A stretch of DNA of 63,925 nucleotides, the filler included, from Atractiella rhizophila (taxonomy: Eukaryota): NCBI GenBank assembly GCA_021432655.1. It is 4 parts of 3 records of this genome, joined end to end, with 100 filler letters (N's around TTAATTAATTAA, not from the genome) between each part and the next. Parts side by side here need not be neighbours in the genome. Positions count along the whole stretch, not along the records: positions 24,798 to 50,894 come from MU271215.1; 3 more parts are not named here. One strand, 5' to 3'. The position numbers were made by a program, and so were the translations under genes. The notes under the pieces were generated by a model, which ran no database searches, had not been told where the DNA came from, and saw nothing but the letters and a program-made list of their open reading frames with translations. Below are positions 23,658 to 63,925 of the stretch, one piece after another. How positions within the stretch are numbered: the first letter of the stretch is position 1; each line of letters opens with the position of its first letter.

Positions 23658-24697
23658 TCATGGCTTCTTGCACGCAATACTGACCAACTTGGCCTGCTTC
23701 CCACCCCACTCAATCTCCCTCACCTCCATCCCTTTCTTCCTCCAAGTCGCCAACACATTCTCCTCCTCATCTCCTCCAACAACGAGAGCGGANNNNNNNN
23801 NNNNNNNNNNNNNNNNNNNNNNNNNNNNNNNNNNNNNNNNNNNNNNNNNNNNNNNNNNNNNNNNNNNNNNNNNNNNNNNNNNNNNNNNNNNNNNNNNNNN
23901 NNNNNNNNNNNNNNNNNNNNNNNNNNNNNNNNNNNNNNNNNNNNNNNNNNNNNNNNNNNNNNNNNNNNNNNNNNNNNNNNNNNNNNNNNNNNNNNNNNNN
24001 NNNNNNNNNNNNNNNNNNNNNNNNNNNNNNNNNNNNNNNNNNNNNNNNNNNNNNNNNNNNNNNNNNNNNNNNNNNNNNNNNNNNNNNNNNNNNNNNNNNN
24101 NNNNNNNNNNNNNNNNNNNNNNNNNNNNNNNNNNNNNNNNNNNNNNNNNNNNNNNNNNNNNNNNNNNNNNNNNNNNNNNNNNNNNNNNNNNNNNNNNNNN
24201 NNNNNNNNNNNNNNNNNNNNNNNNNNNNNNNNNNNNNNNNNNNNNNNNNNNNNNNNNNNNNNNNNNNNNNNNNNNNNNNNNNNNNNNNNNNNNNNNNNNN
24301 NNNNNNNNNNNNNNNNNNNNNNNNNNNNNNNNNNNNNNNNNNNNNNNNNNNNNNNNNNNNNNNNNNNNNNNNNNNNNNNNNNNNNNNNNNNNNNNNNNNN
24401 NNNNNNNNNNNNNNNNNNNNNNGCGTAAGATAGTGTCTGAAGAGAGGCGGATGGGTTAGGGTGTTTGGCTATGAGGTCGCCCGCGAGAAGGAGGGTGTCG
24501 GTAGAGAAGGGGTCGTAGGAAAGCAAAGAAACTAATTCCCTATGTGAGGGCAGAATCAATATCACCTTCATGCCCGCCATTTATTGAAAGAAAAGAGCAT
24601 ACTGCAATGAGGATACCATCCCGTGCACGTCTCCGACTACTATTAACCGCTTCTCAGGCTCTAAGCGTTCATGCCAAACTATGCGAGACCAATCTTC
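23658..24697 (-). CDS. Calcineurin-like metallophosphoesterase (Ppn2/ApaH-like), partial with internal gap
   Basis: RLIVVGDVHG and LLLAGDLIAK motifs before the gap; SALVVGG...KLVSIACKKP* after it. 5' end is cut by the contig spacer. Confidence 0.8.
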
Positions 24698-24797
24698 NNN
24701 NNNNNNNNNNNNNNNNNNNNNNNNNNNNNNNNNNNNNNNNNTTAATTAATTAANNNNNNNNNNNNNNNNNNNNNNNNNNNNNNNNNNNNNNNNNNNN
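24698..24797. other. Artificial contig spacer (N44-TTAATTAATTAA-N44)
   Basis: 100 nt with a six-frame stop linker. Identical spacers at 50895-50994 and 62545-62644. Confidence 0.97.
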
Positions 24798-25708
24798 GAA
24801 GTTAACCGTTTACCGATCGACAACTTGGGCGTCTTCCCTACTCCCTCCCTAAGCATTGACGAATACTCTTCTCACTCGACCGTCCGTTCCAACTAACGCT
24901 TACACACCTACCTCTCAAGCCTTTCTAGGGACACTTACTATTCACCCGCCTGAACCACCAGTAACGTGTCCGTAAGGTAACCTAACCTTTCCTACCTAGC
25001 TCGCGATACCAGTCAGAAAAAACCGACAACGAAATAACCCAACCACCACTCTAGCACGCCTAAACCTGGACTTCCGTCTCTAACGAGCGCACAACTTTGG
25101 ACCACGAGTTGAACGAGACTAAACCTTAGAGCTCCTGGCACTACCTGGACTCTTCACCCATCCCTTTTACGCACTACGAATGCTCCGCGTGCTTCAGCCC
25201 TGAGGAGTCATAGCCGAACCTACCACCTTCGTACAGAAACTAAACGGTCTTATATTTCTCTTGAAGTTTGGGGAGTTCTCGTTACGCCGCCCTCTTCGTG
25301 ACGGTCTACACGTCGTGGCTTTCGATCTCTGCTTGTTTCTACCCCCAACAACTGTCCCATAACTCATTCTCAATGTAATGACTGGACTGCCTTCTCTTCT
25401 CCCTCCTCCACTCTTTTGCCCACGACCTTTAACACCTTCTCCCTCTACCAAACCAAACCAACCGTGAGAGGAGAGGAAAGCACGCGTGAAGATTCCAGTG
25501 CCTGAGCCCAATTCGACGACGCGTGCAGATGCAGGCAATCGTGTGGCAATCAGAGCCAAAGATTGAGAAGGATACGAGGGACGAGCGCGATCGTAGAGCC
25601 CGCTTGATCCTGGCACGCGATCAACACATTCGCCAAAGCGTAACAGCAATGGGACCAGCCTGATTTCGAGAACGCAGACCTAGCGAGGGGATGAACTCGA
25701 GTAGCCAT
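24798..25708 (-). CDS. Class I SAM-dependent methyltransferase (Methyltransf_11-like); 3' part present as reversed, non-complemented sequence
   Basis: Normal part: MATRVHPLARSAFSKS|GSSGLYDRARPSYP...VVELGSGTGIFTRAFLSSH. The complement of 24798-25462 read left to right continues ASIGKWLAVEPAEGMR...ADLVVIAQAFHW...EIARVLKPG...IWNLEDRD...TPQYRLGWW...RVLSKSYI. Confidence 0.93.
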
Positions 25709-26153
25709 AATTTTTTACGAATTGGCGCGGCACAGCTAGCAGGTAAAGATAGCTCAAATGTGAATCGATGAAGTCGCGAGTTCGCAAGCTTGCTTCTTAT
25801 ATTGGTTCTCCTGTCGTGCTGCGCGCGTGCCGAGAATGGCAGAGAAGCAAGGTCGATCAGGCTCTGCGATAGTCAAGAGATACGTGATAAGCTAAGCAAG
25901 GCTAAGAGTATTAAGTAAAGTTGGGTATTGAGCATGGGAAACTGGGGTATCGAGGGGATATCCATATCATCCATATCACGGTCCAAAAATGCTGAGCGAT
26001 TACGATACATGTTGGACTATTGACTGAAAACAAACTGATCCTTTATCAACAACATGAGCGACTTGAAAAGTCTCCCTTAGGAACGAGCGGGGGACAGGCA
26101 GCATTGCTGACAGGGAATCTGCAAACTCAGAAGAAAGGAGGAAAGGGAATCAT

Positions 26154-29100
26154 CTAGGGTATCAAAGATGTCTGCCATGGATGCTTGAGTAGTTCGGCAG
26201 CAGTAGGACGTTCGAGGTGATTACTGTGTGCACGTTCAGCTTGACAGTTAGTCACGTAATGGAACACATACATGAGGAACGTCTGCTCCAAGAAGTGCTG
26301 AGCATGCTCAGTGATATCGTCAGGAATCGTAGGTCGGGCAGAAGAGCCTATCTGGAAGGAAGTCAGCAAATAGCTCGAATTTACAGGAGATAATGATTAC
26401 CTTGAAAATCGCCTGCATTTGGGTCAAGTTTGCCCAAGGATGAGAGCCAGTCAACATCTCAATTATGAGACAGCCCAAGCTCCAGATGTCCGCTTTCTTG
26501 GTGTACGATGTCTGCTTCACGACTTCCGGTGCCATCCAAAATACTGAACCCTGCAGAGACGGTCGATGAACTCGGGCAGTCGCCAACAGATCTATGACAA
26601 AGTGAGAACTATGGACGGCAGTAAAGGAGAAGCGCGCACTCAGTGTGCCATCTTCAACCTTCTTCGAAATACCGAAATCGGAGATCTTGATGCCACCTTT
26701 GTTGTCGACTAGAAGCAGGGATATCAATGATCCGCAGGAGCGAGATGCAGTTAAAATGTACCAAGCACATTAGCCCCTTTGATATCACGATGGATGATAT
26801 CCTTCTCGTGAAGATATTGCAAACCTTCGAGAATTTGGCTGCTCCAAGTGCGGGTTAGCGCTTCTTCAAAAGCGCCGTAAGTTTTCAACAAAAGTTGAAC
26901 CGATCCACCAGGGACGTATTCGAGAAAAATGTTAAGGTGGACCCCATCTGAGGAAGAGTCAAGGTATTGTACGATCCCTGTTTAGCAGTCAAGTGAGGAT
27001 CGAGCGACGAGTGACTGAGAAAAACGAACGTTCGTGCTGCAACTCCTTCAGCAACTCGATCTCCCTCTCCAAGGCCTCCAGCATGCTCTTTTTTCGCTCC
27101 TCGTTGTGGGAATTTCCGGTTGGGAGTTCCACTTGCTTGACGGCCATCAGGGTTCCGTTTGTCGAGTTCATCCCGAGGCTATGAATAGATTCAACGAAAA
27201 AATTGAGTAAAGGTAGAAGGAGAGCGTACTATACGCTTCCAAAAGAACCAGCACCAATTAAGGTACCTTTAATCCACTTGACTTGAGCCTTTGCTCCTTG
27301 CGAGGTATACGCTTGAGGCTTATCCTCCTCGTCTTCCGTCTCCTCATCGTCCTCTTCCTCCTCTTCGTCGATGATCGGAGTAATGTTGGATGAAAGCGGT
27401 CTGTCAAAGTCATCATCGTCGTCTCCAACCATCCAACTTGCGACACTCAATCGCCGATTCTCGACTTCCGCCGCCACCTCATCCATTGTCAGCAGGCTGG
27501 CGTTGTCAGAGTCCGGTCTCCTCATACTGTTGCGAATTTGGCTCACGACACTAAGCCGATCTTGCGCATTCTGCCTTTGTGGGGGATTCCTCATCCCAAC
27601 TGAGGCGGGATGTTCCGTCAAATGGCTGTCGACAGAAGAAAGCGTTGAGCCGTCAGGGGTTGTGTCCATTGTGCTCATACGGTGAGAACCGATTGTACTG
27701 TTGCTGAACCTGGAATTGAGATTTAGCTTCTGAAAGCTGTCCCAATCGCCACGAGGGTCTGGAACAATGTATTGACTGTCGCGGCGTCGCATCGAGAGTC
27801 GGATGCTCTTTCGAACATTCTTCGTCAACTTCTTCTGGTCCGCTTGAGGGAAGAAATCCGTGAAGTTTCCATTGATGATTTCGGAAGGTGGACGTTGGCC
27901 TTGGAACCGAACACCAGCTGGGTTACCATTGACAGGCACGCCGGAAGATGGAGAGCGCAATTGTTGGGCTGCCTGACTAGCTTCCACAACGCCTAACCCA
28001 GACATGACGGAGATCGTGCTCGCGCGGTTCATTTTTCGAGGAATAAATGTCGCGTCTGTTTCGGGTTCATATTCTTCGGTGTAAGCGCCTCCCATTGCTT
28101 CTGCATGAGGCGTTGGAGGAGAAGCTGGTTCAATTTGGGTAGCAGGGATCTGGAGGTCAAGGTAAGGGGAGGAAGGTGTCGCAATTGTTGGTCCATGGAT
28201 ACCGAAGAACTCTTGAAGCTTTCGATTTTTCCTCTTAGGCCCGTCAGAATGGTGCATCTTCCTCAACATCAAACCTCGCTGTCTATCAGCCCGTGTTCCA
28301 TTGCGGCAAATGTCCATCAACTCCCCTTTTGTAAGCCCCTTAGTTTGACCATCCGCCGTAGACCCAAACACTCCCCATCCTTCCATCTCCGCCATATCCT
28401 CGTCATCATCGCTATCTTCAAAATCTTGAGGAAATTGGTCCTTTCCAAACTTCCCAAACTTTCGCAAAACAGTGAGCATAACCTGAGACGCGGTATCGGA
28501 ATCCGAAAAATGCATCATCTTCGACACTCCGTCATCACCTTTGAATTTAACCGTCTTGTTCATTAGATCGTCCAACGACGGAGTTGTCCCATGTCCACCA
28601 ACAGAAACTGTCCCAGCTGGAGTTGACGGACGGCCAAAACCTCCTTTTCCAACAGAGAAACCTAGGCCACCAGCTTCCTTCCTCTGAGGTACAGCAATTT
28701 CGAGGTTCTGGTGTGCTTCATAGTTGGAAGGTTTCCGATAAGAAGGTTCCGTGGGAGAACCAGCGTAGAAGCCGCCTTGATTAGGTGTCTGAGCTGTAGA
28801 AGGACGCTGATTTGCCGAAGAGACGGAAACAGTCGGAGGCATGACTTGAGAGAGCGAAGGGGACTTTCGATGATAGCCTGGTGTCTCTGGGAGACCCTGG
28901 GCAATGGTATTAGGTGATTTGCTCGCGCCGCGAGATTTGGTGCTGGCGGACAGGAGATTTCCGGGAGCAGGAGCCTTGGGAAGACCGTAGTCACCAGCCC
29001 AAGGCTGAGAAGAAGCAGATCCTTGGGGGGCCGTAATAGCCCGCTGGTGCGAAGAGGGTGGGGGATTGGTGGAGGACAGAAGGTTGGGAGTCTTGCTCGG

Positions 29101-35602: not shown

Positions 35603-36799
35603 TGATCTCGATATCGGTGGATGAAGGTGGCTGGAACTCGAACCTCAGAATTCAGTCTCATGCAAATAATTCTGCATCGTTCTTCTTCTCCTTCAAATCC
35701 TTAGCCTAACTCGGACCACCGACTTCTTCAATTCTTTCTTCTACCTGCGGTCTGTCAGGCAACAGATTGAGCCAAGAGTCCCTGTCCCTTCGTCGTCCTT
35801 CAGCCATCCATCCATACCATAGAACATCTTAGCTGGAACGTCTAGTTCCCGTTGGCTCCTTGACACACCGCTCATGATCAATTCTTTGGGTGTTCTGTTC
35901 TGCGTAGTGTTCCTCGAAGCGTCCTGTTCTGTCACAGCTAACGAAAAGGCGTGAAACAGTGCGCATCTGCTCTTGGTCTCTTACAATAGCGCTGACAATG
36001 GCGGACCGCACCGAGCGCAGCAAAGCTGAACAACTCGGTCCATTGTTTCGGTCTGTTGACTATTTTCGGCTTTAAGCCCAGAATAGTGGATCGGTTTGGA
36101 GGATGTCTTTTCTGACCAACGCCACAATGGAAGTCGCGCACCTTTTCGATTTTTCCTCAAGATTACTCCTGGATTATCAGAGGATATGTGGGAGTACATA
36201 GAGTGATCGGGCGGCCGAATGGACGATGCAAAATGGAAGAGGGGACTGGCAGTTGAAAGATAAGACCGATATTTTGGGACTATTTGTTTTCAAAAGCCCG
36301 GAGCTGGAGACCCCAAATCGGAGGTGATGTACAGCCTGTTGGTGTTGTCGAGGTTGGGGTCAAAGTGGGTCGACACCTCCATTTTTGGAGAAACGTTGAG
36401 GGCTGCATGTAATAACGATGCAGAGCTGCTTGAAAGAGCGCAAAAAGGAGATACGTAGCCACCTAAGCACGAACTGTACAAAAGGGAGTCGGCGCGTGAG
36501 CTCGGATGGGTGTCTTTAAGATAAGGTTGATTAAAGATTGCACGATTAACGTTTAAGGCGCCAAAAGTGACGCAACCCACTAAATGTTAACTTGCCTGCG
36601 CAGCACAAGGACCCAACACCTTTTCAACGTCAAGTTGGGAGGTCCGAGGTCTGCTTCCACCAGCTTCCACCATCTCGTTAGGGCTTAGACCTTGCACTGC
36701 TAACCTCACGGTTCTCCAGCCAAACCCTCCAAAAACAACCATCAACTTCGACCATATCACTCGTACTCCGAGTCGACGAGACATCCTAACCATATCCCC

Positions 36800-39213
36800 A
36801 TGAGCGTGTCCATATCCTCCATAACGAACTTCCCTTCTCTCCCTGTGCTCTCAGGACCGTATCAGCTCTCCCATATCAGAACCATCACCCCAATCGAATT
36901 TCCGTCCCCAACTTCTCCTCACAATTCTTCTAATTCTTCGCCTTGTTCAATGCTGGCGCGATCTAGCCCAGATTCTTCAAACACAGAGGCCCACAGGCTA
37001 GAAGGAGCAGCAGCACAGGAGAAAAGCTCAAGCGGTTCTCCAGCTAGTTCATTGACGAGCCAAGGAGCGACTGGTGGCAGGCTACCTTCGCTGAGACAGC
37101 TCTTTCCAGGAAATCTCGGTCCGTTACTTCCACTCTTGTTTGCAAGCTCGATTCTAACGCGAAAGCCTGACGCGTGCCCATTGATCCGTTCATTCTGTTC
37201 CTGTCTCGTGGCCACCTCGCCTTGCTCGCTCTTTCGATAATTTCATATCGCCACCTTGTTCGATCTCGTGCCGGACAAAACTCTATCCCAAACAAAACTA
37301 TTCTGTGACGCGAGCCTTCCCCTTATGACGTTTTGGACTCGCCCGTTCACTCTTGCCGCTCATAACCCGCCTGCGCTTCATCGCTTCCCCTTCCTCATAA
37401 ATACCGACGTCGGAATCTTTTTCACGACTCCAACTCCCCCTTTACCTCCGCGATCGACAGATCAACAATTACAGCTGGATCCTCAAATTCACTTCAACGT
37501 TCACCCTGGCGATGGGACCGCCACTGTGGCGAATCCAAAGAACGCAATGCCAGCAGATCAGCGTCCTTCGACCTCTGCTGGACTCTCCTCCGTCGTACAT
37601 GCGTCTTGGGATCACTCGATCGGCATGGATCAACGACCGTCCACCTCGTCTGGGATCTCTTATGCCCAGAATCCAAGCATGAGGATAGATCTCCCTCCAG
37701 TAGACTTGTCCATCACTCCTTCTGGCGCTCCCTTGCATCCTTTGCCCTCTGGGATTGTAGGTTTCTCTTCATCTATTCTGAATGAAAGGATTTAATAATG
37801 ACGTGGAACAGAGGTCGAATTCGTTCACCAATGTGAACCCAAATGGACACGGGAATGGAGAGAAATCGAATGTTCGATTCTATCAGTTCGAACCGCACAG
37901 AACACCAACGGCTGATCGACCTGACTTCATGACGGGTTACGAATCTTCGACCGTTAACGCCTCGAATCCGGCCCGAATTCCTTCAACGAGCCATCATCGA
38001 TTTTCGGACAGTTCTGCTTCTGCTTCTGCCGCCTTGGCTCAACACTTTCAGGCTGAATACCAACAACAGCTCCGCCCCGCTTCTTCCTCCGGTGCAGAAT
38101 TGCAGTCCTCTTATCATTACCAGCAACAACACCCCCATCATCACCCTTACAGCCTTCAGCCTCAAACCATCCTCCCAGCTCCACAGCAGACGCGCACACA
38201 TCCTCACCTGGCCCCCTCTCAAACTTCTCCCTCCCCTCAGTTCCAATACAACCTCCTCCCGCCCTCCAACACCTCCACTTTCTTCTCTGACATTCCCTCT
38301 CCGCCTTCCTCAATGTCATCTGTCGCTTCTTCTGGACGTTTTCCCTCTCCACCCTCTCAAGCACCAACGACTGGTCTCCCGAACCCTTTCGAGACTTTTG
38401 ATCGACTAAATGTCGATTCCGCACCTTCATCGGAAGCAGGTTCGAGGCCGACCTCTGCCGTCGTGGATCTGGATTGGGAGAGAGCGTATGCGCTCGATCG
38501 AGGAGTTTACATCCCACATTCGCAACATCATCCTCACCATGGAGGTCTCGGGGACGAAGCTGTGTTGCGCCGAAATTCGGATGGTCAAAAGGATCATCCC
38601 GCCGTCGTCCTCGCCAGAACTCCATCTCTACCCCAAATGCGCTCGGTCGCTTTTCCCTCTCAGTTCATGTATGGTCCTATAGCCCCAGGGACGACTTTCC
38701 AGGCTGCTAACGGATTGGAATTTGAGGTCGTGCCGAAGAGACAGATCGTTACCCCGAATGGGATCGTCTCCCTCCCTATCGATCCGTACGCGGCGGCCGC
38801 TAGTCAGGCAAACGCTGCTGCTGCCACCGCGGCTGGAGGGAGGTATCAGTGTCGATATTGTGATAAGAGGTTTGCGAGACCTTCGAGCTTGAAGATTCAC
38901 GTGTTCTCGCATACGGGAGAGAAACCTTTCAAGTGCAACATCTGCGGTAGGGGGTTCTCGGTCCAGGTCGGTTCATTCTCATTGGATGCAGGAGTAAACT
39001 AATGTTATGGAACAGAGCAATCTCAGACGTCATGGAAAAGTTCACGAGAGAGATCAAGCCGCTGCTGCTCTTAGTGACGCGTCGTCGAACCCTTCTCTGT
39101 CCAGAGCTGACTCTGGGTCGACCGACAACTCACATGCCAGTACAAGTGCGACTTCAGAGGAACCTTTCGACGATTACGAGGAGGAAGTCATCGATGAAGA
39201 AGGATCTTCCTGA
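36800..39213 (+). CDS. C2H2 zinc-finger transcription factor (two fingers, MtfA/Nrg1-like)
   Basis: [51 protein letters not shown]; long Ser/Pro/Gln-rich region with repeated RPSTS/RPASS motifs. Introns 37119-37460, about 37757-37788 and about 38968-39014. Start position uncertain (36800 or 36950). Confidence 0.85.
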
Positions 39214-50894: not shown

Positions 50895-50994
50895 NNNNNN
50901 NNNNNNNNNNNNNNNNNNNNNNNNNNNNNNNNNNNNNNTTAATTAATTAANNNNNNNNNNNNNNNNNNNNNNNNNNNNNNNNNNNNNNNNNNNN
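50895..50994. other. Artificial contig spacer
   Basis: N-TTAATTAATTAA-N, 100 nt. Confidence 0.97.
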
Positions 50995-51611
50995 TCTGCT
51001 TACGAGAGAAACAGATGGAATACATCCTCACTGAACTCCTCAAAAAGTGCGTCTCACTCATCTCCAGTCTCTCAACCGCAAGCATGCTAAAAGGAGTTTG
51101 GGTTGGGATCCAGTTCCTTTCGCGCCACGACAGAAACGCATCGCGTCCTCGGCTCCTTCTCCTCCGACCTCCCCCCGATACTCATAACCCTTTCTCGGTC
51201 GCCCTCCCTTCTCTCGATCCGCATCCGGGATCGAGGAGGGGGAATCAACCCTAAGAACCTAAAGGACGTGTTCGACTACGCATTCACCACCGTCCGACAC
51301 GGCCCGGATGAGCCTGAGGAAAGCGATATATACGCTGCAGTCTCCATGCCAGGAGGTGGAGCGGATATGTTTGGTGGGTTGACAAGCAGTGGGTTGAAGA
51401 CTGGATTGGGGACGATTGCTGGGTTGGGATATGGGTAGGCATTCTCATTATGGCCATTTTTTGGTCAATTGGAAAGTAACTAATGCATCGAATGGACAGT
51501 CTGCCGCTCGCTAGATTGTATGCGAGATATTTTGGAGGGAGTCTGGACATTGCGAGCGTTTGGGGACTCGGGACGGACGTTTTCGTCACATTGAGGACGG
51601 CGGATGAGTGA
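50995..51611 (+). CDS. Mitochondrial alpha-ketoacid dehydrogenase kinase (PDK/BCKDK family), 3' part
   Basis: EYILTELLKN|SFRAT; IRIRDRGGGI...VFDYAFTT; IAGLGYG|LPLARLYARYFGGSLD...GTDVFVTL. Confidence 0.9.
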
Positions 51612-51749
51612 TGAGGAATTACGCATTGTATTATATATCAATCTACTTTTCCAAGCACCTGTAGAGAGCAGCATTAGATCAACATACGAGTGAGAACAGG
51701 ATGGGATGAAGGAAGACTGACGAACTCATCACTGACTGCTGGAGGATAT

Positions 51750-52130
51750 CTAGAGGCCACCGGGTGGTTGCGCTTCTTGCATTTTTCGCCCTATGAGGTC
51801 GGAGGCGGCGAACCATTTGGCGACACACCTTCACCCGCACAAGAACACCATGTTGTCAACACTTGAATTTCATTCCACACATCCTCTCTCTGACGTCCCA
51901 ATGAATGGAACGGGAGAAAAAGCGTACCGGTCATTACAAACTCCCTCCGCCTTCTCCAGATCCCCTCCGGTGAACCGTGAAGAGGCCCCGATACACTTTG
52001 TCCAACAGGTCTCCGTCAGCCTTTTGAAGAGGTCGCTGACCATTTCGACCTCCATCTGGGCTGCGTGGAGGGCGTCGGATGTTTGGCCCGCTGGGGGAGC
52101 GGCAGAGGGTCCGCGGCCGAAAAGAGACAT
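51750..52130 (-). CDS. TIM10: Mitochondrial intermembrane-space chaperone Tim10
   Basis: AAQMEVEMVSDLFKRLTETCWTKCI...DLEKAEGVCNDR|CVAKWF twin CX3C motif. Confidence 0.93.
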
Positions 52131-52286
52131 GCTGCTAGAGTCGATGGAGAAGTCGAATGAGTCAAAAGAAGTCGTCTGGTCGTTTGAACAGTGTCAAGTT
52201 TCAAAATGTTGAAAAGGCGGAGCTGAGCGGAGGAGGAGCGAGCGACCAAAAACGACCAACAACGACCAACGACCACATCGCTCAGA

Positions 52287-53627
52287 ATGTCGCACGCGCA
52301 CGAGGAGCCCAGCGCTGATGACCTCCCCGTCTATCCATCCTTCGAGGGCTCCCCGCGCCACTCGCCTCCTCCGTCGGGAGGCAGGAAGAGGACCCCACCC
52401 GTGCTCCCTACGCCACACGGATTCCCTATCAATTCCGCGAGGACGTACTCGAGGGAAGAAGTCGCTAATGCCCTGCAGGAGTGGTGTAAGAGTCTGGGAC
52501 TCAACATTCAGATCATAGGGGGAATCAATAGAGGCGGCTATTGTTGGTATGGCGATGAGTGTCATCCGTACAATCGATGTCAAAAGGCACCAAAGATTAA
52601 TGAGTGCGTATTTCTCTATTCCTCCCAAATGTTCGTTTTGCGACGTTGCTAACGTGTTTTTTTGATTTTGTTTGGTTTGTTTTGTTGGGCGGACAGCAAA
52701 AGAGTGTTATGCGATTTTGGGGTCAAAATGAAGCGCTCGTCGTCGGACGGTCAGTGGCAAGTGTCGAACATCACCTCCACCCACACCGCCGACTGCCTTC
52801 AATTCCATTCAAGGACCACAATCCCTCAGGACGCTTCGTCAGTAGGGCCATCCGTTCGTCACTTCATCTTTCCTCTCCTCGGTCTTTGTTCTGACGGAGA
52901 AACAGCAGTTCTTGGCCGTCACTGATTTTGCTGCTCCTCCCATTCCTCTGCCACCCGGTCCTAGCTCGCATGATCCGCATCAGCATCCACATCCACACCA
53001 TCCTCATCCTCATCCTCACAGCACAGAGATCCCCACCGGCCTCGCCGAATACGTCGAGTCCTCTCATTCTCACTCGCACTCCCATCCGCATTCTCCAAGA
53101 ACTGTCTTGGGAGCCGCGTTGGCCGAAGTGGAGGTGGACGGTCCCGTAGAACGCGTCTCCCCTCCTCCTCATCCGTTTGCTCCTTTCGTCGACTCTCCTC
53201 AAAAACAAGGTCGCGAGCAACGGTACGGGGGTTCCCCACCAGCGAAGAGACAGAGGCTGAGTCCGTTTCCCCTTTGCTGGATTGAATAGAATCTAACTGG
53301 ATACGTGGATGACGAGCAGTGGAACTGCAAGAAGAGCATTTCACGAACCGCTCCGACCTCGCCCGCTTCTTCGCGACCCTGAACCTGATCGAAAAGGAAG
53401 ACGTGGACCTGGACGCGCTCGTGGAGAGGTGTCGATGCAAGTTGGACGACCTCTTGGACGTCTGTGAGGACAGGGAATGCTTCGAACTCGCGGTCGGGTA
53501 CAACGATCCCACCAACAATGGGGCGTACAAGTGCGCGTTGAGTCCTAGGGCGAAGGCTTTGGCGTTGAAGAAGTTGAGGGATATTAGGAGGATGAATGGT
53601 GTCAATGTTGCTGTCGCTGAGGAGTGA
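52287..53627 (+). CDS. Hypothetical protein with a FAR1/WRKY-GCM1-like domain, His-Pro repeats and a helical C-terminal domain
   Basis: Spliced: ...EVANALQEWCKSLGLNI...CHPYNRC...KRVLCDFGVKMKRSSSDGQWQVSNITSTHTADC, resembling the C..C-x-F...W-x-V...H-x3-C pattern. HPHPHH repeats; PPAKRQRL NLS-like motif. Confidence 0.5.
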
Positions 53628-54249
53628 TGAGTTCAAAGGGGGATGTTCGTGTTTCGTGATTGTATTGATGTACTTCAATTGATAACGTGCAATATTCTCA
53701 AGTGATTTAACGTTCTGAGGCTTAGCTAATTTTATTTGGAGATGAACATTAGATATTGGATTTCTGAGAAATTGTTGTAAACACTCGATGTGAGTTGATT
53801 GGTAAGGACACAACAACATGATTGAATTTAATGGAGATAATAAGAATAGTTGGCAGCGATCAACAAATCAACAAGGCACAACAGAAGAGAGCAGAGAAAA
53901 CATGTTCAGAACAACGCAGCAGACTAAATCCCAGAATTCAGGCTCGGGACAGGGAATTATTCAGACCAACGCATCAGATAAGAGGAGAGATCAAGGATGA
54001 ACAGGAAAAGATTAAAAGAGTGTTGAGAGTTGGTTATGAATGAGTCGAGAAAAGAAGGAAGGAGATAAACAAGAAATATTAAAGAAAGTGGGTTCGAGTG
54101 AGTAAACGAAGTGATGCTGGTGAGTCCATTGGCTGAGTCCATTGGGCTGAACATTCTTTGAGATGGGAGAGAAACAACAGAGAAGATACCTGAAAACATT
54201 GGCAGGAGCCAAAGGCCGTACAAATCAAAGAGACAAAACAGGAAGATGG

Positions 54250-55020
54250 AAAAAGTTGGCATGGATGATAATTGAAACATTTGGTTCTTCAAAGCTCCTC
54301 CTCTTCGTCCCCAGCCAGCGCATGCAAGTTCTTTCGACTCGCACGGCGTGCAAAGTCGATGAAGAACGAGCCTATTTGAGCCATGGGAGATGGAGGATGA
54401 GTAAGAGGCAGAGGCAGCACAGGCGAAGGTGGAGGAGCAAGCAGGCCTATTCCAGCTCAACTTAAGCAGAGGTTCAAAGGAGGAGAGGAGAGAGAACGCA
54501 CTCGAAGAGGAAGCTGCGCTTGTTGGTGAGTTTGAGCGGAGGGAGTGAGATGATTTCCAGAACTTCAAGCTTCTCTTTCCCTTGAGAACCTTCTCGTATT
54601 CGGAGTCGTCGCTGCGCTCTATCAGGTGAACAAACCGTATGATTAGTTCATAGAGCTCATGAGGGAAACAGGAGCGGCTTACCAATGGCTTCGAAAGTTT
54701 CGTCTGTGTCACTCTCGTCCGATTCCAGCTCCAAGAAACTCATCTTTCCTGTAACACCTACCGCAACCAATGAGTGAATCCAAGGTCATAACGAAGAAGA
54801 AAAGCGTACCGAGCTTAGCAGAGACAGATCCTAGCTTGTACCCATGGTCCTTGACAAACGAAGGGCTGCGTTGTGGCTCGCTCGCCGTCAGAGCTGCTGG
54901 CTCTTCTGCTTCCATTGCTTGTGGTTCAGAATGGAGGATGAAGAGACCGAGACCAATACCTGCAAGTAGAAAGGGTAAGGTCCTTGCAACAGAAGAAAGA
55001 GAGGACATGCTAGGACACTC
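54250..55020 (-). CDS. Hypothetical membrane-anchored protein
   Basis: MSSLSSVARTLPFLLAGIGLGLFILHSEP TM segment, with plausible introns near 54760-54805 and 54625-54685. No recognisable family; 3' end uncertain. Confidence 0.3.
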
Positions 55021-55981
55021 AGAGGGTTGCGTTGAGACCTCTGCGTACATCGGTGCAGTCAAGACTCTCGTTGAACTCGGAACTGATGCAAGTAAACGTT
55101 AGTCAGATCAGAACGAAGGGAGGAGAAGGCTTACTTGGACTTGAGTCAGGATCGGGAGAGACGATTGTGGGAGTGCGCACTTTGACGCTGGAAAGGAAGA
55201 TAAGCTCCAATTCGCCACTCGAGTCGGAGACGTTATCCTTCCTCTGCCTTCTCGGTTTCGTCTTTGGTACGGGAGACACTATCAAGAAACAAACCTCAAA
55301 CCCCATTCCGTGAAGATTGGTCAAACGCACCACTACCCATGGGGCAGTTTACTACTTTCTCCGTCTTGACCTCAAGGTGAGTTTCGCGCCGAGCTAAGTC
55401 ACTTTGACTACGCCTCACTGCTCTCCTCCTCTCCCGCTGAAATTCACGCTCTCCTTCTTTGGGGAAATAGCGAAACTCAAACGACTCTGGGGTCCTCTCA
55501 TAAGCAGGTGGGAGCACGGGCGTCCAATTCTACGCCGAAAGGCAACTGAGTCTCACCTTTGACTGCAAAGAGATTCACGTACCTCTTTCTCTCCTCGTAA
55601 TTGTTCCACGGTAAGCGAAGGAGGGCCAGTCTTGTTACGACGTTTAGCGAGAGAAAGGGAGGAGGTGGAGTGGGTGGTATGGAGAGTTCCGAGTGGAGAA
55701 CGAGAAGAAGAAGCTGAGAGGCGAGTGGACATCTTGAGCAGACAACGGCAGTCAAGGTGTGGACAGACAAATGATTGAGGCGAGAGTAAGAATACCAGGG
55801 ATTCGGTACCTCAAGGTGACAATTATTGTAAAGTTGGATAGCAATGACCTTGAGCTTGGTTGTTTTCAGCTGACAGCTTCCGATAACCTAAATATACTCA
55901 CGTGACTTAGACTGATAAGTACGCATTGCAAAAGCACAATGGAGGTATGGATAGATGTTACTAGACACTTTAGGGTCCAAA

Positions 55982-58900
55982 TAAATCAGGCCCTGCTGAA
56001 GAGAACAATTTCCTTTGGTGGAATTTTCTTGACCACGTCCCCAAATTGTGGAAGCCTTGTGCCATATTTTTGCGCAGCTAACCCAATCTCATGTCACTTC
56101 TATGCCACTTTTCCGGTTCATTCAAGTTCCTGCCCTCCTGGTCCAGGGCAGACTCAACGGGCCGGCTCATCAACGCTGCAAGTAAACAGACTGATACTTT
56201 TATTTTAGCATTATTGTTTTACGGAGTTTTCGTCCGACGTTCGTTGAGCGGATCCACCTTTTTATGGAGATCTTGTCTTTGGTCGCTGAATTGAGATCCA
56301 ACTAGTCACGGTTACAGTGAAGCAATGATAATTGTGCATTTCAACAGGGAGCAATGCGGCATAGAAGTTGTCGGATTGGGGGCATGATTCTGGGTTTGGA
56401 GAAATGGAAAGACGAAAAAGTCATGTGATGAAATAGTAAGATTTCGTGAGCGAAAGATATCCTTGCGAGTGATTCTGTTTCGGCTCTCAGACCGTTTCTT
56501 GCACTGCTTTCTTTGCACTGTAAGGAGTCTCGTCAGCTTTATTGCAATGCGAAAGATACAACTCACTCAACAAAATCCACAGTATGCCATTGGCTTTCGG
56601 TGTATGCGGGACGCTCAGCGTCCTGGGCACTATGGGACTGGTGTCAGCACTATCCTTTTGGTGGTGAGGAGCCTTACTGAGGAGAAGATGGTCTGCCAGC
56701 TGTGACCACTTGGTAAGAGGGAAGCGATCTTTTCCTGGGTAGGATCGTCCGTTTCTCTTCCATCGTTTCCTCAGAGACTCTTCGTCTCAACCAAAGCCGC
56801 TTCCCGAAGAAGAAGAGAGCGCCCTATGGCATGAACGCTCATGAGATTGTCTGTGTTTGAAGCTCTAGTTATAAACATACCAGAACAAAGAGATAGAGAA
56901 CGGTAAATGCGCCTGATAATGCAGCTATTGATGTAGGATCTTGCTGATACATATAGCTGTAAAAGCTGCCGACGGAGTTAGAGCATGCCATCAAATAGAT
57001 AAGGAGAATACCATGTTTCAGGATAATCTGTTCAGAATCGATTCAACAGATGTATCTGAAAGGAAAAGAATCACATGCAAGATGTTGACACTGAAGCGCT
57101 CGTAGTCGGATCGGGATATTCTCCAAGGGAAGTCGTAGGGTTCGTCAAAACAGCAGACATGGCGCTTAATGCAATCGTTTAAGGAAGAGAGGTGGCAGGT
57201 TCTCTGGGGAGTGACCAAAGAACACAGTCTTTTATATTCGCGGGGTAGAGGACAACAACTTCAAGGTTTCATCCGCCTTTCCGAGACGACGCGCTCGAGA
57301 CGTGCTGAAATAAAAAAACGATTTAAGCAGAGGTTCAAAGGAGGAGAGGAGAGAGAACGCACTCGAAGAGGAAGCTGCGCTTGTTGCTGAGTTTGAGCTG
57401 AGAGAGTGAGATGATTTCCAGAACTTCAAGCTTCTCTTTCCCTAGCGAATTTTCTCGTATTCGGCGTCGTCGCTGCGCTAAATCAGGCGCTGCTGAAGAG
57501 AACCATTTCTTTTTGGTGGAATTTTCTTGACCACGTCCCCAAATTGTGGAAGCCTTGTGCCATATTTTTGCGCAGCTAATCCAATCTCTTGTCACTTCTA
57601 TGCCACTTTTCCGGTTCATTCAAGTTCCTGCACTCCTGGTCCAGGGCAGACTCAACGGGCCGGCTCATCAACGCTGCAAGTAAACAGACTGATACTTTTA
57701 TTTCAGCATTATTGTTTTACGGGGTTTTCGTCCAACGTTCGTTGAGGGGATCCAACTTTTTATGAGATCTTGTCTTTGGTAGCTGAATTGAGATCCAACT
57801 AGTCACGGTTACAGTGAAGCAATGATAATTGTGCATTTCAACTGGGAGCAATGCGGCATAGAAGTGGGGGCATGATTCTGGGTTTGGAGAAATGGAAAGA
57901 CGAAAAAAGACATGTGATGAAATCGTAAGACTTCGTGAACGAAGGATATCCTTGCGAGTCATTCTGTTTCGGCTCTCAGACCGTTTCTTGCACTGCTTTC
58001 TTTGCACTGTAAGGAGTCTCGTCAGCTTATTGCAATGCGAAAGGTACAACTCACTCAACAAAATCCACAGTATGCCATTGGCTTTCGGTGTATGCGGGAC
58101 GCTCAGCGTCCTGGGCACTATGGGACTGGTGTCAGCACTATCCTTTTGGTGGTGAGGAGCCTTACTGAGGAGAAGATGTTCTGCCAGCTGTGACCACTTG
58201 GTAAGAGGGAAGCGATCTTTTCCTGGGTAGGATCGTCCGTTTCTCTTCCATCATTTCCTCAGAGACTCTTCGTCTCAACCAAAGCCGCTTCCCGAAGAAG
58301 AAGAGAGCGCCCTATGGCATGAACGCTCATGAGATTGTCTGTGTTTGAAGCTCTAGTTATAAACATACCAGAACAAAGAGATAGAGAACGGTAAATGCGC
58401 CTGATAATGCAGCTATAGATGTAGGATCTTGCTGATACATATAGCTGTAAAAGCTGCTGACGGAGTTAGAGCATGCCATCAAATAGATAAGGAGCATACC
58501 ATGTTTCAGGATAATCTGTTCAGAATCGATTCAACAGATGTATCTGAAAGGAAAAGAATCACATACAAGATGTTGACACTGAAGCGCTCGTAGTCGGAAC
58601 GGCATATTCTCCAAGGGAAGTCGTAGGGTTCGTCAAAACAGCAGACATGGCGCTTAATGCAATCGTTTAAGGAAGAGAGGTGGCAGGTTCTCTGGGGAGT
58701 GACCAAAGAACAGAGTCTTTTATATTCGCGGGGTAGAGGACAACAACTTCAAGGTTTCATCCGCCTTTCCGAGACGACGCGCTCGAGACGTGCTGAAATC
58801 TCGTGACTTCCGTTTCTTGTGACTCTTGTACCATTCCTTCCGAAGCAATCATGTCTTGGTGCCAGTTGAGAAGTTGATTGAGCAGTAAATCTCTAAAAAT

Positions 58901-61900
58901 CAAGGTACGTTCTGTTAATCTTTGTGAACAATGATTTACACGGTCAAGCGTTTTTCCAACGAGCCCATCCCAGATGCAGAGGAATAAATGTAAAAGTAAT
59001 GACATTGCACAATGGGGATTAGAGGATTACAATCAGCAACAAAGCGCCTCGACGGACAGTGCGAAACGTGTTTATTCCTTATGTGCAATGAAATTCGTTA
59101 GCTTCAGCCGCGTAGACCGAATTTTGCAAGTAGCGTCCATGCCGCTTTGGGAAACATCGAAAACGAACTGACTGAGGAACTTTGTGGTTCCTCAGTTCAA
59201 ATCATGCCCAGCCTAGCCGCTTCTGGGTTGAGTGCTCTCTTCTCACTAGAACGCGGCGTCAGTAGAAGCTCGCTGCAACAGCGAAGATCAGCTCACTCGA
59301 TATCGACTGTTGGACCGCCGACGACAGAAACAGCCACGAATTCAGCAGGTTTTGTATGATAAGAAGGAAGCGAATCTCGATGCGAGTGAGAGGGAACGAC
59401 AACCGAAGGCAGGATGGTCTGCTCTCTTAGCTGTGGTTTCTGGGTCGCTTTCCTCTTCAACCAGAAATATCTTATGGTAGCAGCCACAATCCCCTACAAC
59501 AGCCCTGCAAGCATGAGAACAGTCAAAGACAGATGGATACGGGCGTACGAGAACGGCAAGATAGACCAAAGTGAAAGCGCTGGAAACTGCAGCCGTCTCC
59601 CAGATATTGTACTTGTAGCCGAACGTCTCATACCTGGCTCCGTCTGTCAGAAAGCAAAGAATGTGAGTTGGGCACACGTACACATTTGTCAAGACATAGC
59701 CGGTCGCGACTGGTGCAGGTGCTTGAACTTCATCAGCACAAAATTATTCAACTATGAAAAGGCTCACTAGCTGTCGCAATTGCTCCACTTGGTGAAGTGG
59801 TCGTCAAATCAAAGAGAGAGGTGAAGACGTGAGCCATGATGATACTTTAGGGAGTGCAACTGATACTGGCACACCTCAATACGGGCAGACTCAACGGGCC
59901 GGCTCATCAACGCTGCAAGTAAACAGACTGATACTTTTATTTCAGCATTATTGCTTTACGGAGTTTTCGTCCGACGTTCGTTGATGGGATCCACCTTTTT
60001 ATGAGATCTTGTCTTTGGTCGCTGAATTGAGATTTAACTAGTCACGGTTACAGTGAAGCAATGATAATTGTGCATTTCAACAGGGAGCAATGCGGCATAG
60101 AAGTTGTCGGATTGGGGGCATGATTCTGGGTTTGGAGAAATGGACGAAAAAAGACATGTGATGAAATCGTAAGACTTCGTGAACGAAGGATATCCTTGCG
60201 AGTGATTCTGTTTCGGCTCTCAGACCGTTTCTTGCACGGCTTTCTTTGCACTGTAAGGAGTCCCGTCAGCTTTATTGCAATGCGAAAGGTACAACTCACT
60301 CAACAAAATCCACAGTATGCCATTGGCTTTCGGTATATGCGGGACGCTCAGCGTCCTGGGCACTATGGGACTGGTGTCAGCACTATCCTTTTGGTGGTGA
60401 GGAGCCTTACTGAGGAGAAGATGGTCTGCCAGCTGTGACCACTTGGTAAGAGGGAAGCGATCTTTTCCTGGGTAGGATCGTCCGTTTCTCTTCCATCGTT
60501 TCCTCAGAGACTCTTCGTCTCAACCAAAGCCGCTTCCCGAAGAAGAAGAGAGCGCCCTATGGCATGAACGCTCATGAGATTGTTTGTGTTTGAAGCTCTA
60601 GTTATAAACATACCAGAACAAAGAGATAGAGAACGGTAAATGCGCCCGATAATGCAGCTATAGATGTAGGATCTTGCTGATACATATAGCTGTAAAAGCT
60701 GCTGACGGAGTTAGAGCATGCCATCAAATAGATAAGGAGCATACCATGTTTCAGGATAATCTGTTCAGAATCGATTCAACAGATGTATCTGAAAGGAAAA
60801 GAATCACATACAAGATGTTGACACTGAAGCGCTCGTAGTCGGAACGGCATATTCTCCAAGGGAAGTCGTAGGGTTCGTCAAAACAGCGGACATGGTGCTT
60901 AATGCAATCGTTTAAGGAAGAGAGGTGGCAGGTTCTCTGGGGAGTGACCAAAGAACACAGTCTTTATATTCGCGGGGTAGAGGACAACAACTTCAAGGTT
61001 TCATCCGCCTTTCCGAGACGACGCGCTCGAGACGTGCTGGAATCTCGTGACTTCCGTTTCTTGTGACTCTTGTACCATTCCTTCCGAAGCAATCATTGTC
61101 TTGGTGCAAGTTGAGAAGTTGATTCAGCAGTAAATCTCTAAAAATCAAAGTACGTTCTGTTAATCTTTGTGAACAATGATTTACACGGTCAAGCGTTTTC
61201 CAACGAGCCCATCCCAGAAGCAGAGGAATAAATGTAAAAGTAATGACATTGCACAATGGGGATTAGAGGATTACAATCAGCAACAAAGCGCCTCGACGGA
61301 CAGTGCGAAACGTGTTTATTCCTTATGTGCAATGAAATTCGTTAGCTTCAGCCGCGTAGACCGAATTTTGCAAGTAGCGTCCATGCCGCTTTGGGAAACA
61401 TCGAAAACGAACTGACTGTGGAACTTTGTGGTTCCTCAGTTCAAATCATGCCCAACCTAGCCGCTTCTGGGTTGAGTGCTCTCTTCTCACTAGAGCTCGG
61501 CGTCAGTAGAAGCTCGCTGCAACAGCGAAGATCAGCTCACTCGATATCGACTGTTGGACCGCCGACGACAGAAACAGCCACGAATTCAGCAGGTTTTGTA
61601 TGATAAGAAGGAAGCGAATCTCGATGCGAGTGAGAGGGAGCGACAACCGAAGGCAGGATGGTTTGCTCTCTTAGCCGTGGTTTCTGGGCCGCTTTCCTCT
61701 TCAACCAGAAATATCTTATGGTAGCAGCCACAATCCCCTACAACAGTCCTGCAAGCATGAGAACCGTCAAAGACAGATGGACACAGACGTACGAGAACGA
61801 CAAGATAGACCAAAGTGAAAGCGCTGGAAACTGCAGCCGTCTCCCAGATATTGTGTTCGTAGCCAAACGTCTCATACCTGGCTCCCGTCTGTCAGAAAGC

Positions 61901-62125
61901 AAAGAATGTGAGTTGGGCACACCTACACATTTGTCAAGGCATAGCCGGTCGCGACTGGTGCAGGTGCTTGAACTTCATCAGCACAAAATTATTCAACTAT
62001 TAAAAAGCTCACTAGCTGTCGCAATTGCTCCAGTTGGTGAAGTGGTCGTCAAATCAAAGAGAGAGGTGAAGACGTGAGCCATGATGATACTTTAGGGAGT
62101 GCAACTGATACTGGCACCTCAATAC
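55982..62125 (+). repeat. Nested tandem array: three copies of a ~1.2-2.2 kb unit plus a copy of 54462-54618
   Basis: 55982-57311 aligns to 57479-58799; 57644-59882 aligns to 59883-62125; 57323-57479 aligns to 54462-54618. Confidence 0.95.
58750..59838 (-). pseudogene. Degenerate membrane-protein-like gene within the repeat unit (second copy at about 60990-62082)
   Basis: Minus-strand MAHVFTSLFDLTTTSPSGAIATAS start, intron-like GTGAGC/CTGACGG signals, hydrophobic exon YETFGYKYNIWETAAVSSAFTLVYLAVLVR, with in-frame stops and frameshifts. Confidence 0.35.
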
Positions 62126-62399
62126 AACGTTACGACCTGAGAGGAAGGGAAAGAGGTCTCCAAGCTTTTAAGGTCCATGGATTCAGCTCCGCGATCCCGA
62201 GAGATTGAACCGCGCGCTTACAGGTGATATTGTCCCATTGGCAATAAATTCCTTTGCACAGAGATCTGGGAGGAACCGCAACATATAAGTAGTTATGCTT
62301 TGTGTCATATACATAGATCAAAGAGAACCTCACATCCGAGTGCTTGTACATCACAGTCCAGAACGTTCGTGTGAATGTTAATACTTGCGGTACCTGAAG

Positions 62400-62544
62400 A
62401 AATGAACGAGGCGCTAATTCGGATCGCTTTCGAGTACAAGCAGACAAAGTATGACAACTTTACGGTGCTTTATCACCCATTAGAATTCGACTGGGTGTCA
62501 TTTCCGAGTGCGATATCTCTCTTCCTTTCACTGAAAAACAACGT
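62400..62544 (+). CDS. Possible fragment of an SGNH/GDSL (phospholipase B1-like) hydrolase
   Basis: EMNEALIRIAFEYKQTKYDNFTVLYHPLEFDWVSFP resembles the segment preceding the DCFHP motif of such enzymes. Cut by the spacer, so the catalytic motif is not seen. Confidence 0.3.
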
Positions 62545-62644
62545 NNNNNNNNNNNNNNNNNNNNNNNNNNNNNNNNNNNNNNNNNNNNTTAATTAATTAA
62601 NNNNNNNNNNNNNNNNNNNNNNNNNNNNNNNNNNNNNNNNNNNN
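62545..62644. other. Artificial contig spacer
   Basis: N-TTAATTAATTAA-N, 100 nt. Confidence 0.97.
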
Positions 62645-63925
62645 ATTATCGCGCCCGTATCCGTAATGCAGTTTGGTGATGCTTGCAAATCGATGTTGTC
62701 CACGGTCAGAGTATCTTAACACCGACCATCTAAAGGCTATCCCAGTCCGAAAATAAGCAGGAGGGTGGGGCATTGCACAATCAACTCCGTTCAGATTCAC
62801 TCTCAGTCTCAACAGGAGCCATCCGCGGATCCACTCTGTCGCCCCCTTCCCTGCACGATGAGTCCGTAGATGTGTCAGCGCCAGTAATATATTGTTTGGA
62901 CAGTTTGGCAGATTGGCACAATCAGGAAAGCTTCAACCAGGTTTTGAAAGGGAGCGACGGAGACACAATTGATACAATCTGAAGCTCTGGTTCTGAGTGA
63001 AATAAACCTGGTCTCGTTAACCCTTGTTTTGCTTCAAGTTGAAGGTATCTTGAAAAGCTATTAGAAAAGCTATTAAAAGCAATAGCAAGAGAGTTTATTC
63101 TTCTCAGCTTGGGTCAGCAATTTTCAAGCACTTCCATCCTACATGTTACTACATAGGTACTAAAAGAAGTGGATGGCAAAGTGGAAAGTGTGTTCTCTTC
63201 CGAGAAATGGGAGAGCCCATGTACTATTATCATAATTCGCGAGACTTCGTCTTATGCGAACAGAGTATTCTTCAGCTATTCCACTGTGACGCGCCGCGAT
63301 ACTTCTGGATAGTGCACTTTCCTGCATACTGTTTGCCTAATGGAAAGTTCGATGGAACAGAGACTGGATCACAGAAATGATTGACACCCACTGGTATTAG
63401 TCGAGAGCAAACTGAAGCACCCATATCATTGTGTTCATCTCAGCACGCTCTGATTCGATCCAGCGGAAGAGAGTTGAGCTGGAATCCCCTTGGGCAAGAG
63501 GATGAGGGTCTGTCCGTCCTAAGGTGTTACATCCACCCCAAGGCTCAAGGGTACTGTCACGAAGAAACAACTGTCATACCCCCTTCCAGGCGACTCATGA
63601 ATCTGCGGCTGTAGTAGCCACATTGCTAAGTTGTCTTAGAGTTTGGTCAAGATAACGTCACGACAGTCATTGATTTCATATATAAAGGGACTTTCATGCA
63701 AGCTTATGTTGCCTCAGGTTCATATCATATTGGTGCATGATACGGCATAGAAATACGCTTTCCTTGACAATGTAATGAAGCAGAGTTCATGGGGCATTTA
63801 CTGGACAGTTAGTATTGTTGACACAGTGCGATGCTTTCATTTCATTCTAATATCCGTTCAGCTCATAGCCAATCCTTAGAGCCGTGATGAGAAAGAAAAT
63901 CGCCACTTTGTTCTCGGGTTAAGTG

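Follow-up and report, generated by a model that had tools for sequence, protein, structure and literature searches.

We found that positions 24798-25459 of the window, the whole 63,925-nucleotide stretch of Atractiella rhizophila DNA that was analysed (assembly GCA_021432655.1), hold 662 nucleotides whose letter order is reversed without complementation, and which in restored order belong to the left of position 25460. The letters of this block are unchanged; their order alone is reversed. Homology, the orientation of the k-mers and read-derived contigs confirm this reading, and we conclude that the block is almost certainly an in silico artefact and no property of the organism's DNA.

Four scaffold pieces make up the window (1-24697, 24798-50894, 50995-62544 and 62645-63925), and the first of the spacers that separate them has the following layout.

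24698-24797: spacer of 100 nt, made of 44 N, the 12-mer TTAATTAATTAA (24742-24753) and another 44 N.

An identical 100-nt spacer stands at 50895-50994 and at 62545-62644. From its letters, the 12-mer TTAATTAATTAA is its own reverse complement and places stops in all six frames; we therefore regard the spacers as man-made. Inner gaps of N lie at 1191-1274 and 23793-24422, and contigs start at five positions within the window (1275, 24423, 24798, 50995 and 62645). The mirrored block opens at 24798, which is base 1 of the second piece and directly follows the spacer (44N-TTAATTAATTAA-44N), just as an earlier note on this DNA had said in placing the segment at a contig end beside an artificial spacer.

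To the right of the block, a minus-strand gene beginning with an ATG at 25708-25706 reads ...VVELGSGTGIFTRAFLSSH, and the normally written part of its second exon holds the glycine-rich SAM-binding stretch VVELGSGTG. Left of about 25460, no continuation of this gene was found in any of the six ordinary frames. The complement of the plus strand, read from left to right starting at 24798, extends the gene in frame and in protein-like fashion, and the earlier note's proposal that the gene continues in a complement-only reading is borne out: all of the codons that lie entirely inside the block (198/198) are identical to P0001, a public protein named for the same species, once one GT-AG intron and one extra G are allowed for. 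The features of the gene and of the block are as follows.

25660-25708, minus strand: exon 1, with the ATG at 25708-25706 and aa 1-17; aa 1-17 of P0001 match at 100% on 25708-25658.
25610-25659, minus strand: intron 1, 50 nt, apparently GC..AG, placed with contigs from public runs X5 and X3.
25460-25609, minus strand: normally written part of exon 2, aa 17-67, fitted by contigs from runs X1, X2 and X3.
24798-25459, no strand assigned: the mirrored block, 662 nt.
24798-25009, complement read left to right: remainder of exon 2, inside the block, 212 nt, comprising the last two bases of codon 67 and aa 68-137.
25010-25074, complement read left to right: intron inside the block, 65 nt, GT..AG, the gap between model nucleotides 460 and 526.
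25075-25459, complement read left to right: exon 3, inside the block, 385 nt, that is, 128 codons (aa 138-265) and one surplus G.

The GT..AG splice signals are present only in the mirrored reading of the block. The surplus G, one of a run of five that is written as C5 at 25343-25347, causes a frameshift at codon 227. With the boundary set at 25460, exact matches to P0001 cover aa 2-17, 17-38, 40-137, 138-227 and 227-265; the last two of these lie in successive frames, and the match of aa 40-137 crosses the junction at 25459/25460. The restored gene is thus equal to P0001 over aa 1-265, save for residue 39, where the window has Thr and P0001 has Ser. Because the block ends at codon 265 of 287, the final 22 codons of the gene are absent from the window. 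Relative to P0001, then, the window copy lacks its last 22 codons, at the contig end, and carries a surplus G at codon 227.

For the homology comparison we used as the query the normally written exon's 49 residues (window:25464-25610:-); of 117 candidates, 41 proteins passed at E <= 0.001. P0001 was the best match (98% identical, 287 aa), and its source name is 'S-adenosyl-L-methionine-dependent methyltransferase [Atractiella rhizophila]'; within the collection, no protein of 87-2000 aa reached 100% identity to the N-terminal exon as it stands in the window, and P0001, at 98%, came closest. In a local tblastn, the sequence as written matched P0001 over aa 1-82 only, and aa 68-281 matched the letter-reversed sequence in its minus frames, which correspond to the complement-only reading (E 1.5e-68). 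Proteins from other genera matched the mirrored sequence likewise (P0003, P0004 and P0006, with E values of 8e-23, 5e-21 and 6e-23). Among the fetched homologues, 41/41 matched the mirrored block, with E values from 6.8e-70 to 7.8e-7, and 0/41 matched the block as written on either strand (tblastn, E <= 1e-3). None of the six ordinary frames shows the homology that appears once the reversal is undone, and when the whole 63.9-kb window was mirrored, P0001 matched at this block alone. The methyltransferase homology that had been expected of the complement-only string was therefore found, at 100% identity, and the homology of the mirrored reading is far beyond what chance could account for.

The position of the junction could be fixed to the base. 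We scored 13 candidates for the first normal base (25455-25467) by the junction peptide of P0001, and found that 25460 alone yields that peptide, HGSSIGKW. The earlier note had described a reversed segment of 665 nt with its boundary at 25462/25463; the reversal stands, and the length is corrected to 662 nt and the boundary to 25459/25460. A first normal base at 25463 gives HASIGKW, not the HGSSIGKW of P0001, and the H-A junction proposed there does not hold. Since three bases had been misassigned, both the junction residue 'A' and the final residue 'L' of that reading are wrong.

The protein itself shows nothing unusual. P0001 matches the Pfam family Methyltransf_11 (PF08241) with 56.6 bits, against a cut-off of 21.2, and also matches Methyltransf_25, Methyltransf_12, Methyltransf_23 and Ubie_methyltran; the window's normally written 49 aa alone reach 22.2 bits for Methyltransf_23, which is under the 27-bit cut-off. 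The solved chain closest to P0001 is 3dh0_A (E 9.7e-9), and the closest chains are generic SAM-dependent methyltransferases. Judged by its sequence, the hidden gene is an ordinary predicted class I SAM-dependent methyltransferase with three exons.

We then turned to sequencing reads. Twenty-four public runs were listed, of which X1 and X2 held the largest shares of sampled words (0.52 and 0.51), with 0.29 held by X3 and 0.24 by X5. X1 and X2 represent one sample, X3 another sample, and X5 a root metatranscriptome; the contigs of these four runs, which may stem from isolates other than the window's own, were aligned to 24798-26121. We found that contigs of X1, X2 and X3 fit the window from exactly 25460 rightwards, at an identity of at least 99%, and that their loose ends before 25460 share the same 30-letter consensus, which is the reverse of 24798-24827, letter for letter. 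Among the aligned contigs of X1, X2, X3 and X5, none crosses the junction in the written order. The X2 contig, 3386 letters long and fitted over its letters 878-1538 on the minus strand, runs about 1.8 kb past the junction, further than the 662-nt block extends. Set against the window over 662 nt, X1 and X2 show three letter differences and one indel. Depth over 24798-25459 was 0 in 4/4 runs, although by the method's own caveat an uncovered part proves nothing; similarly, the word shares of 0.52 and 0.51 are compatible with the block being absent from X1 and X2 and are no evidence on their own. Together, the junction contigs show that the sequenced DNA and RNA in these runs carry the un-reversed order at the junction. 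That contigs of X1, X2 and X3 leave the written order at exactly 25460 supports the interpretation as an artefact that the earlier note had put forward.

The same contigs bear on the expression of the gene. In the RNA contig of X5, 50 nt (25609-25658) are left out, and four letters fit on either side. The X3 contig leaves the window at 25612 and resumes with ten letters equal to 25663-25672, and because of this match it is spliced and probably derived from RNA. Placing the intron at 25610-25659 gives the reading SKSGSSG, as in P0001, and intron 1 appears to be of the GC..AG type, the sole placement within the 4-nt ambiguity that has a known splice type. The X3 and X5 contigs indicate that the gene is transcribed and spliced in relatives.

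Several small discrepancies were seen along the way. At 25544 the window differs from 4/4 aligned runs, and residue 39 is Thr, not Ser. At 26089-26093 the window has one G more than X1, X2 and X3, and the X5 contig agrees with the window. The discrepancies at 25544, 26089-26093 and 25343-25347 are either strain differences or homopolymer-length errors. In addition, the contigs of X1 (of the genomic type) and X3 (of the spliced type) both stop exactly 49 letters beyond the junction at 25460, counted in the true order, and that of X2, from the same sample as X1, continues; near the original start of the window's contig there may thus be a site that is polymorphic, or a branch in the graph.

The orientation of the block can also be read from the DNA without recourse to proteins. 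DNA is strand-symmetric and not reversal-symmetric, and a strand-symmetric k-mer model can therefore separate a sequence from its letter-reversed form. We scanned the window with a leave-out 5-mer Markov model (300-nt windows, step 100, n=616), scoring the sequence as written minus the sequence reversed. Over the 616 scan windows the score had a mean of +15.7 and an sd of 10.0. The five scan windows that overlap the block scored -27.9, -30.7, -20.5, -15.6 and -9.4, and elsewhere the minimum was -11.5; the orientation score of the block is thus opposite in sign to the mean of the scan. Along the block's contig, a cumulative 6-mer log-odds fell to -123.9, with its change point at +663, the boundary that the proteins mark as well. 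At the remaining contig starts, the 6-mer dip was -1.3 for 1275, -15.1 at +118 for 24423 and -3.2 for 50995, and 62645 had none; the 6-mer model was trained on those other pieces and so favours them, the 5-mer leave-out scan being the fair version. No mirrored prefix was detected at the other four contig starts by the 6-mer scan, which has little power below roughly 200-300 nt, and the k-mer scan made no further mirrored block of about 300 nt or more visible in the window.

A simpler measure proved uninformative. The longest stop-free run in normal versus mirrored frames was 87 versus 149 aa for the block, and 95 versus 148 aa for the internal region 36301-36800; because this internal region resembles the block, the longest stop-free run does not discriminate. 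Region 36301-36800 scores -9.0 in the 5-mer scan and holds no convincing ORF in normal frames, and 54601-54900 scores -11.5, the lowest value outside the block. With 616 overlapping windows scanned, a score at about -2.7 sd is to be expected from noise, and we treated these two regions and other mildly negative windows accordingly.

The 275-nt piece at 24423-24697, which follows the 630-N gap, holds two open minus-strand frames, ...VVGDVHGMVSSLQ and ...DTLLLAGDLIAKHP; we take VVGDVHGMVSSLQ and DTLLLAGDLIAKHP to resemble the motifs by which calcineurin-like phosphoesterases bind metal, here interrupted by an intron. We judged this piece to be normally written despite its dip of -15.1 at +118, as its minus-strand frame is open and protein-like up to the start of the piece. 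The next gene to the right of the methyltransferase, on the minus strand at 26320-27228, has ORFs that include ...WMAPEVV..., motifs that presumably belong to a protein kinase, STE-group-like.

How could such a block have arisen? No process of replication, repair or recombination is known to reverse letter order without complementing. Since no natural process is available, and since the un-reversed string agrees with a relative in 198 of 198 codons, the reversal was made by software. Within the artefact interpretation we lean, by somewhat better than an even chance, towards a fault at the assembly or extension stage. The original contig would have begun at 25460, and a leftward extension would have gathered bases one by one, moving outward; if these bases were kept in the order of their discovery and joined to the contig unturned, the outcome would be reverse(T)+contig, in which the true neighbour of 25460 lands far to the left, at 24798. 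Such an extension would account for the start at contig base 1, for the base-exact joint and for the absence of duplication. A second copy of the block was found in the window in neither letter order, the written block matching itself alone, and nothing has therefore been duplicated. In the real genome, the bases stand in the opposite order, and the minus-strand gene then runs off the contig at codon 265 of 287. A mirrored prefix occurs at one of the five contig starts in the window (24798), and because only this one is affected, a systematic extension fault is not demonstrated; that a systematic fault of the tool mirrored the 5' ends of many contigs here, and perhaps in other assemblies made by the same tool, strikes us as unlikely. 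Among titles and abstract openings, we found no literature on an assembler fault of this kind, reversed sequence being mentioned there for deliberate decoys or in unrelated matters, which is weak evidence that a reversed-order assembly fault is absent from print.

The reversal may also have been introduced after assembly, which is likewise a sub-case of the artefact: a script for formatting or orientation may have applied 'reverse' in place of 'reverse complement', or a decoy or test segment may have been inserted deliberately. We consider this origin possible, if on balance doubtful. Reversed, uncomplemented DNA is a standard in silico decoy, made intentionally both for Dfam (PMC3531169) and in a preprint of 2026 (10.64898/2026.04.14.718546), and such deliberate use is as compatible with a later edit as with an assembler fault. 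The window, moreover, is a concatenate with artificial spacers and has therefore already been processed, and one contig start of five is affected. However, a segment placed at random would be unlikely to begin exactly at contig base 1, and a slip in the orientation of a whole contig would have turned the full 26,097 nt and not just 662. Neither argument settles the matter.

Origins that lie outside a plain reversal by software fare worse. The colours of two-base encoding are invariant under reversal and under complementation, and an inverted terminal misjoin combined with a wrong joint colour would decode as 'reversed only', a known route to letter transformations beyond any enzyme. This would, however, take two separate errors, the inverted misjoin and the joint colour error, and the 662 nt hold no internal letter-swap switches; the discrepancies seen are limited to one letter in the length of a G run and to single substitutions, unlike the pattern of colour-space errors, and we regard this origin as very improbable. 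A colour-space error alone would permute letters in place; here it is the order that has changed, by reversal, and not the letters. More improbable by far is that the isolate's DNA truly has the written order, as a natural or engineered mirror of the gene. Any string of letters is chemically possible as DNA, and even the best run holds 0.52 of the words, but replication, repair and recombination are not known to reverse without complementing, descent could not have preserved a full set of 198 identical codons together with GT..AG signals in an orientation without meaning, and at the junction the normal order is found in contigs of three runs, drawn from two samples. Least credible of all, to the point that we give it practically no weight, is a biological inversion or a mirror repeat (H-DNA type), for which the superficial idea of a 'flipped segment' speaks and nothing more. 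A biological inversion yields the reverse complement, and the six ordinary frames, reverse complement included, were matched by none of the 41 homologues. A mirror repeat would require the forward sequence close by; elsewhere in the window, the reversed block has no match.

As an artefact of software, the block is without biological meaning and has modest value as a flag for data quality. It renders two-thirds of the methyltransferase gene invisible to six-frame searches, gene callers and read mappers, and analyses of the record would call the gene truncated or lost. Should a tool be at fault, and not one isolated slip, further contig starts may be affected, with genes silently hidden. A strand-symmetric k-mer test of the written versus the reversed sequence detects mirrored blocks of about 300 nt or more, with no need of a protein database.

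Among known systems, the block resembles mis-oriented contig ends and inversion misassemblies in its site at a contig end, in its sharp breakpoint and in its interruption of a gene. Unlike mis-oriented ends, which can be read on the other strand, it is unreadable in six frames (0/41 homologues), and the read contigs fit it on neither strand, as their loose ends show. The same operation on letters is carried out in the dfamseq-rev sequence of Dfam (PMC3531169), a decoy type of reversal that keeps base composition and low-complexity features and destroys every biological signal. Because reversal destroys the biological signal, gene finders and six-frame searches see nothing. In contrast to the Dfam decoy, which is a labelled control set, the reversed sequence here is a 662-nt piece within a genome record, joined in the middle of a codon to correct sequence and unlabelled.
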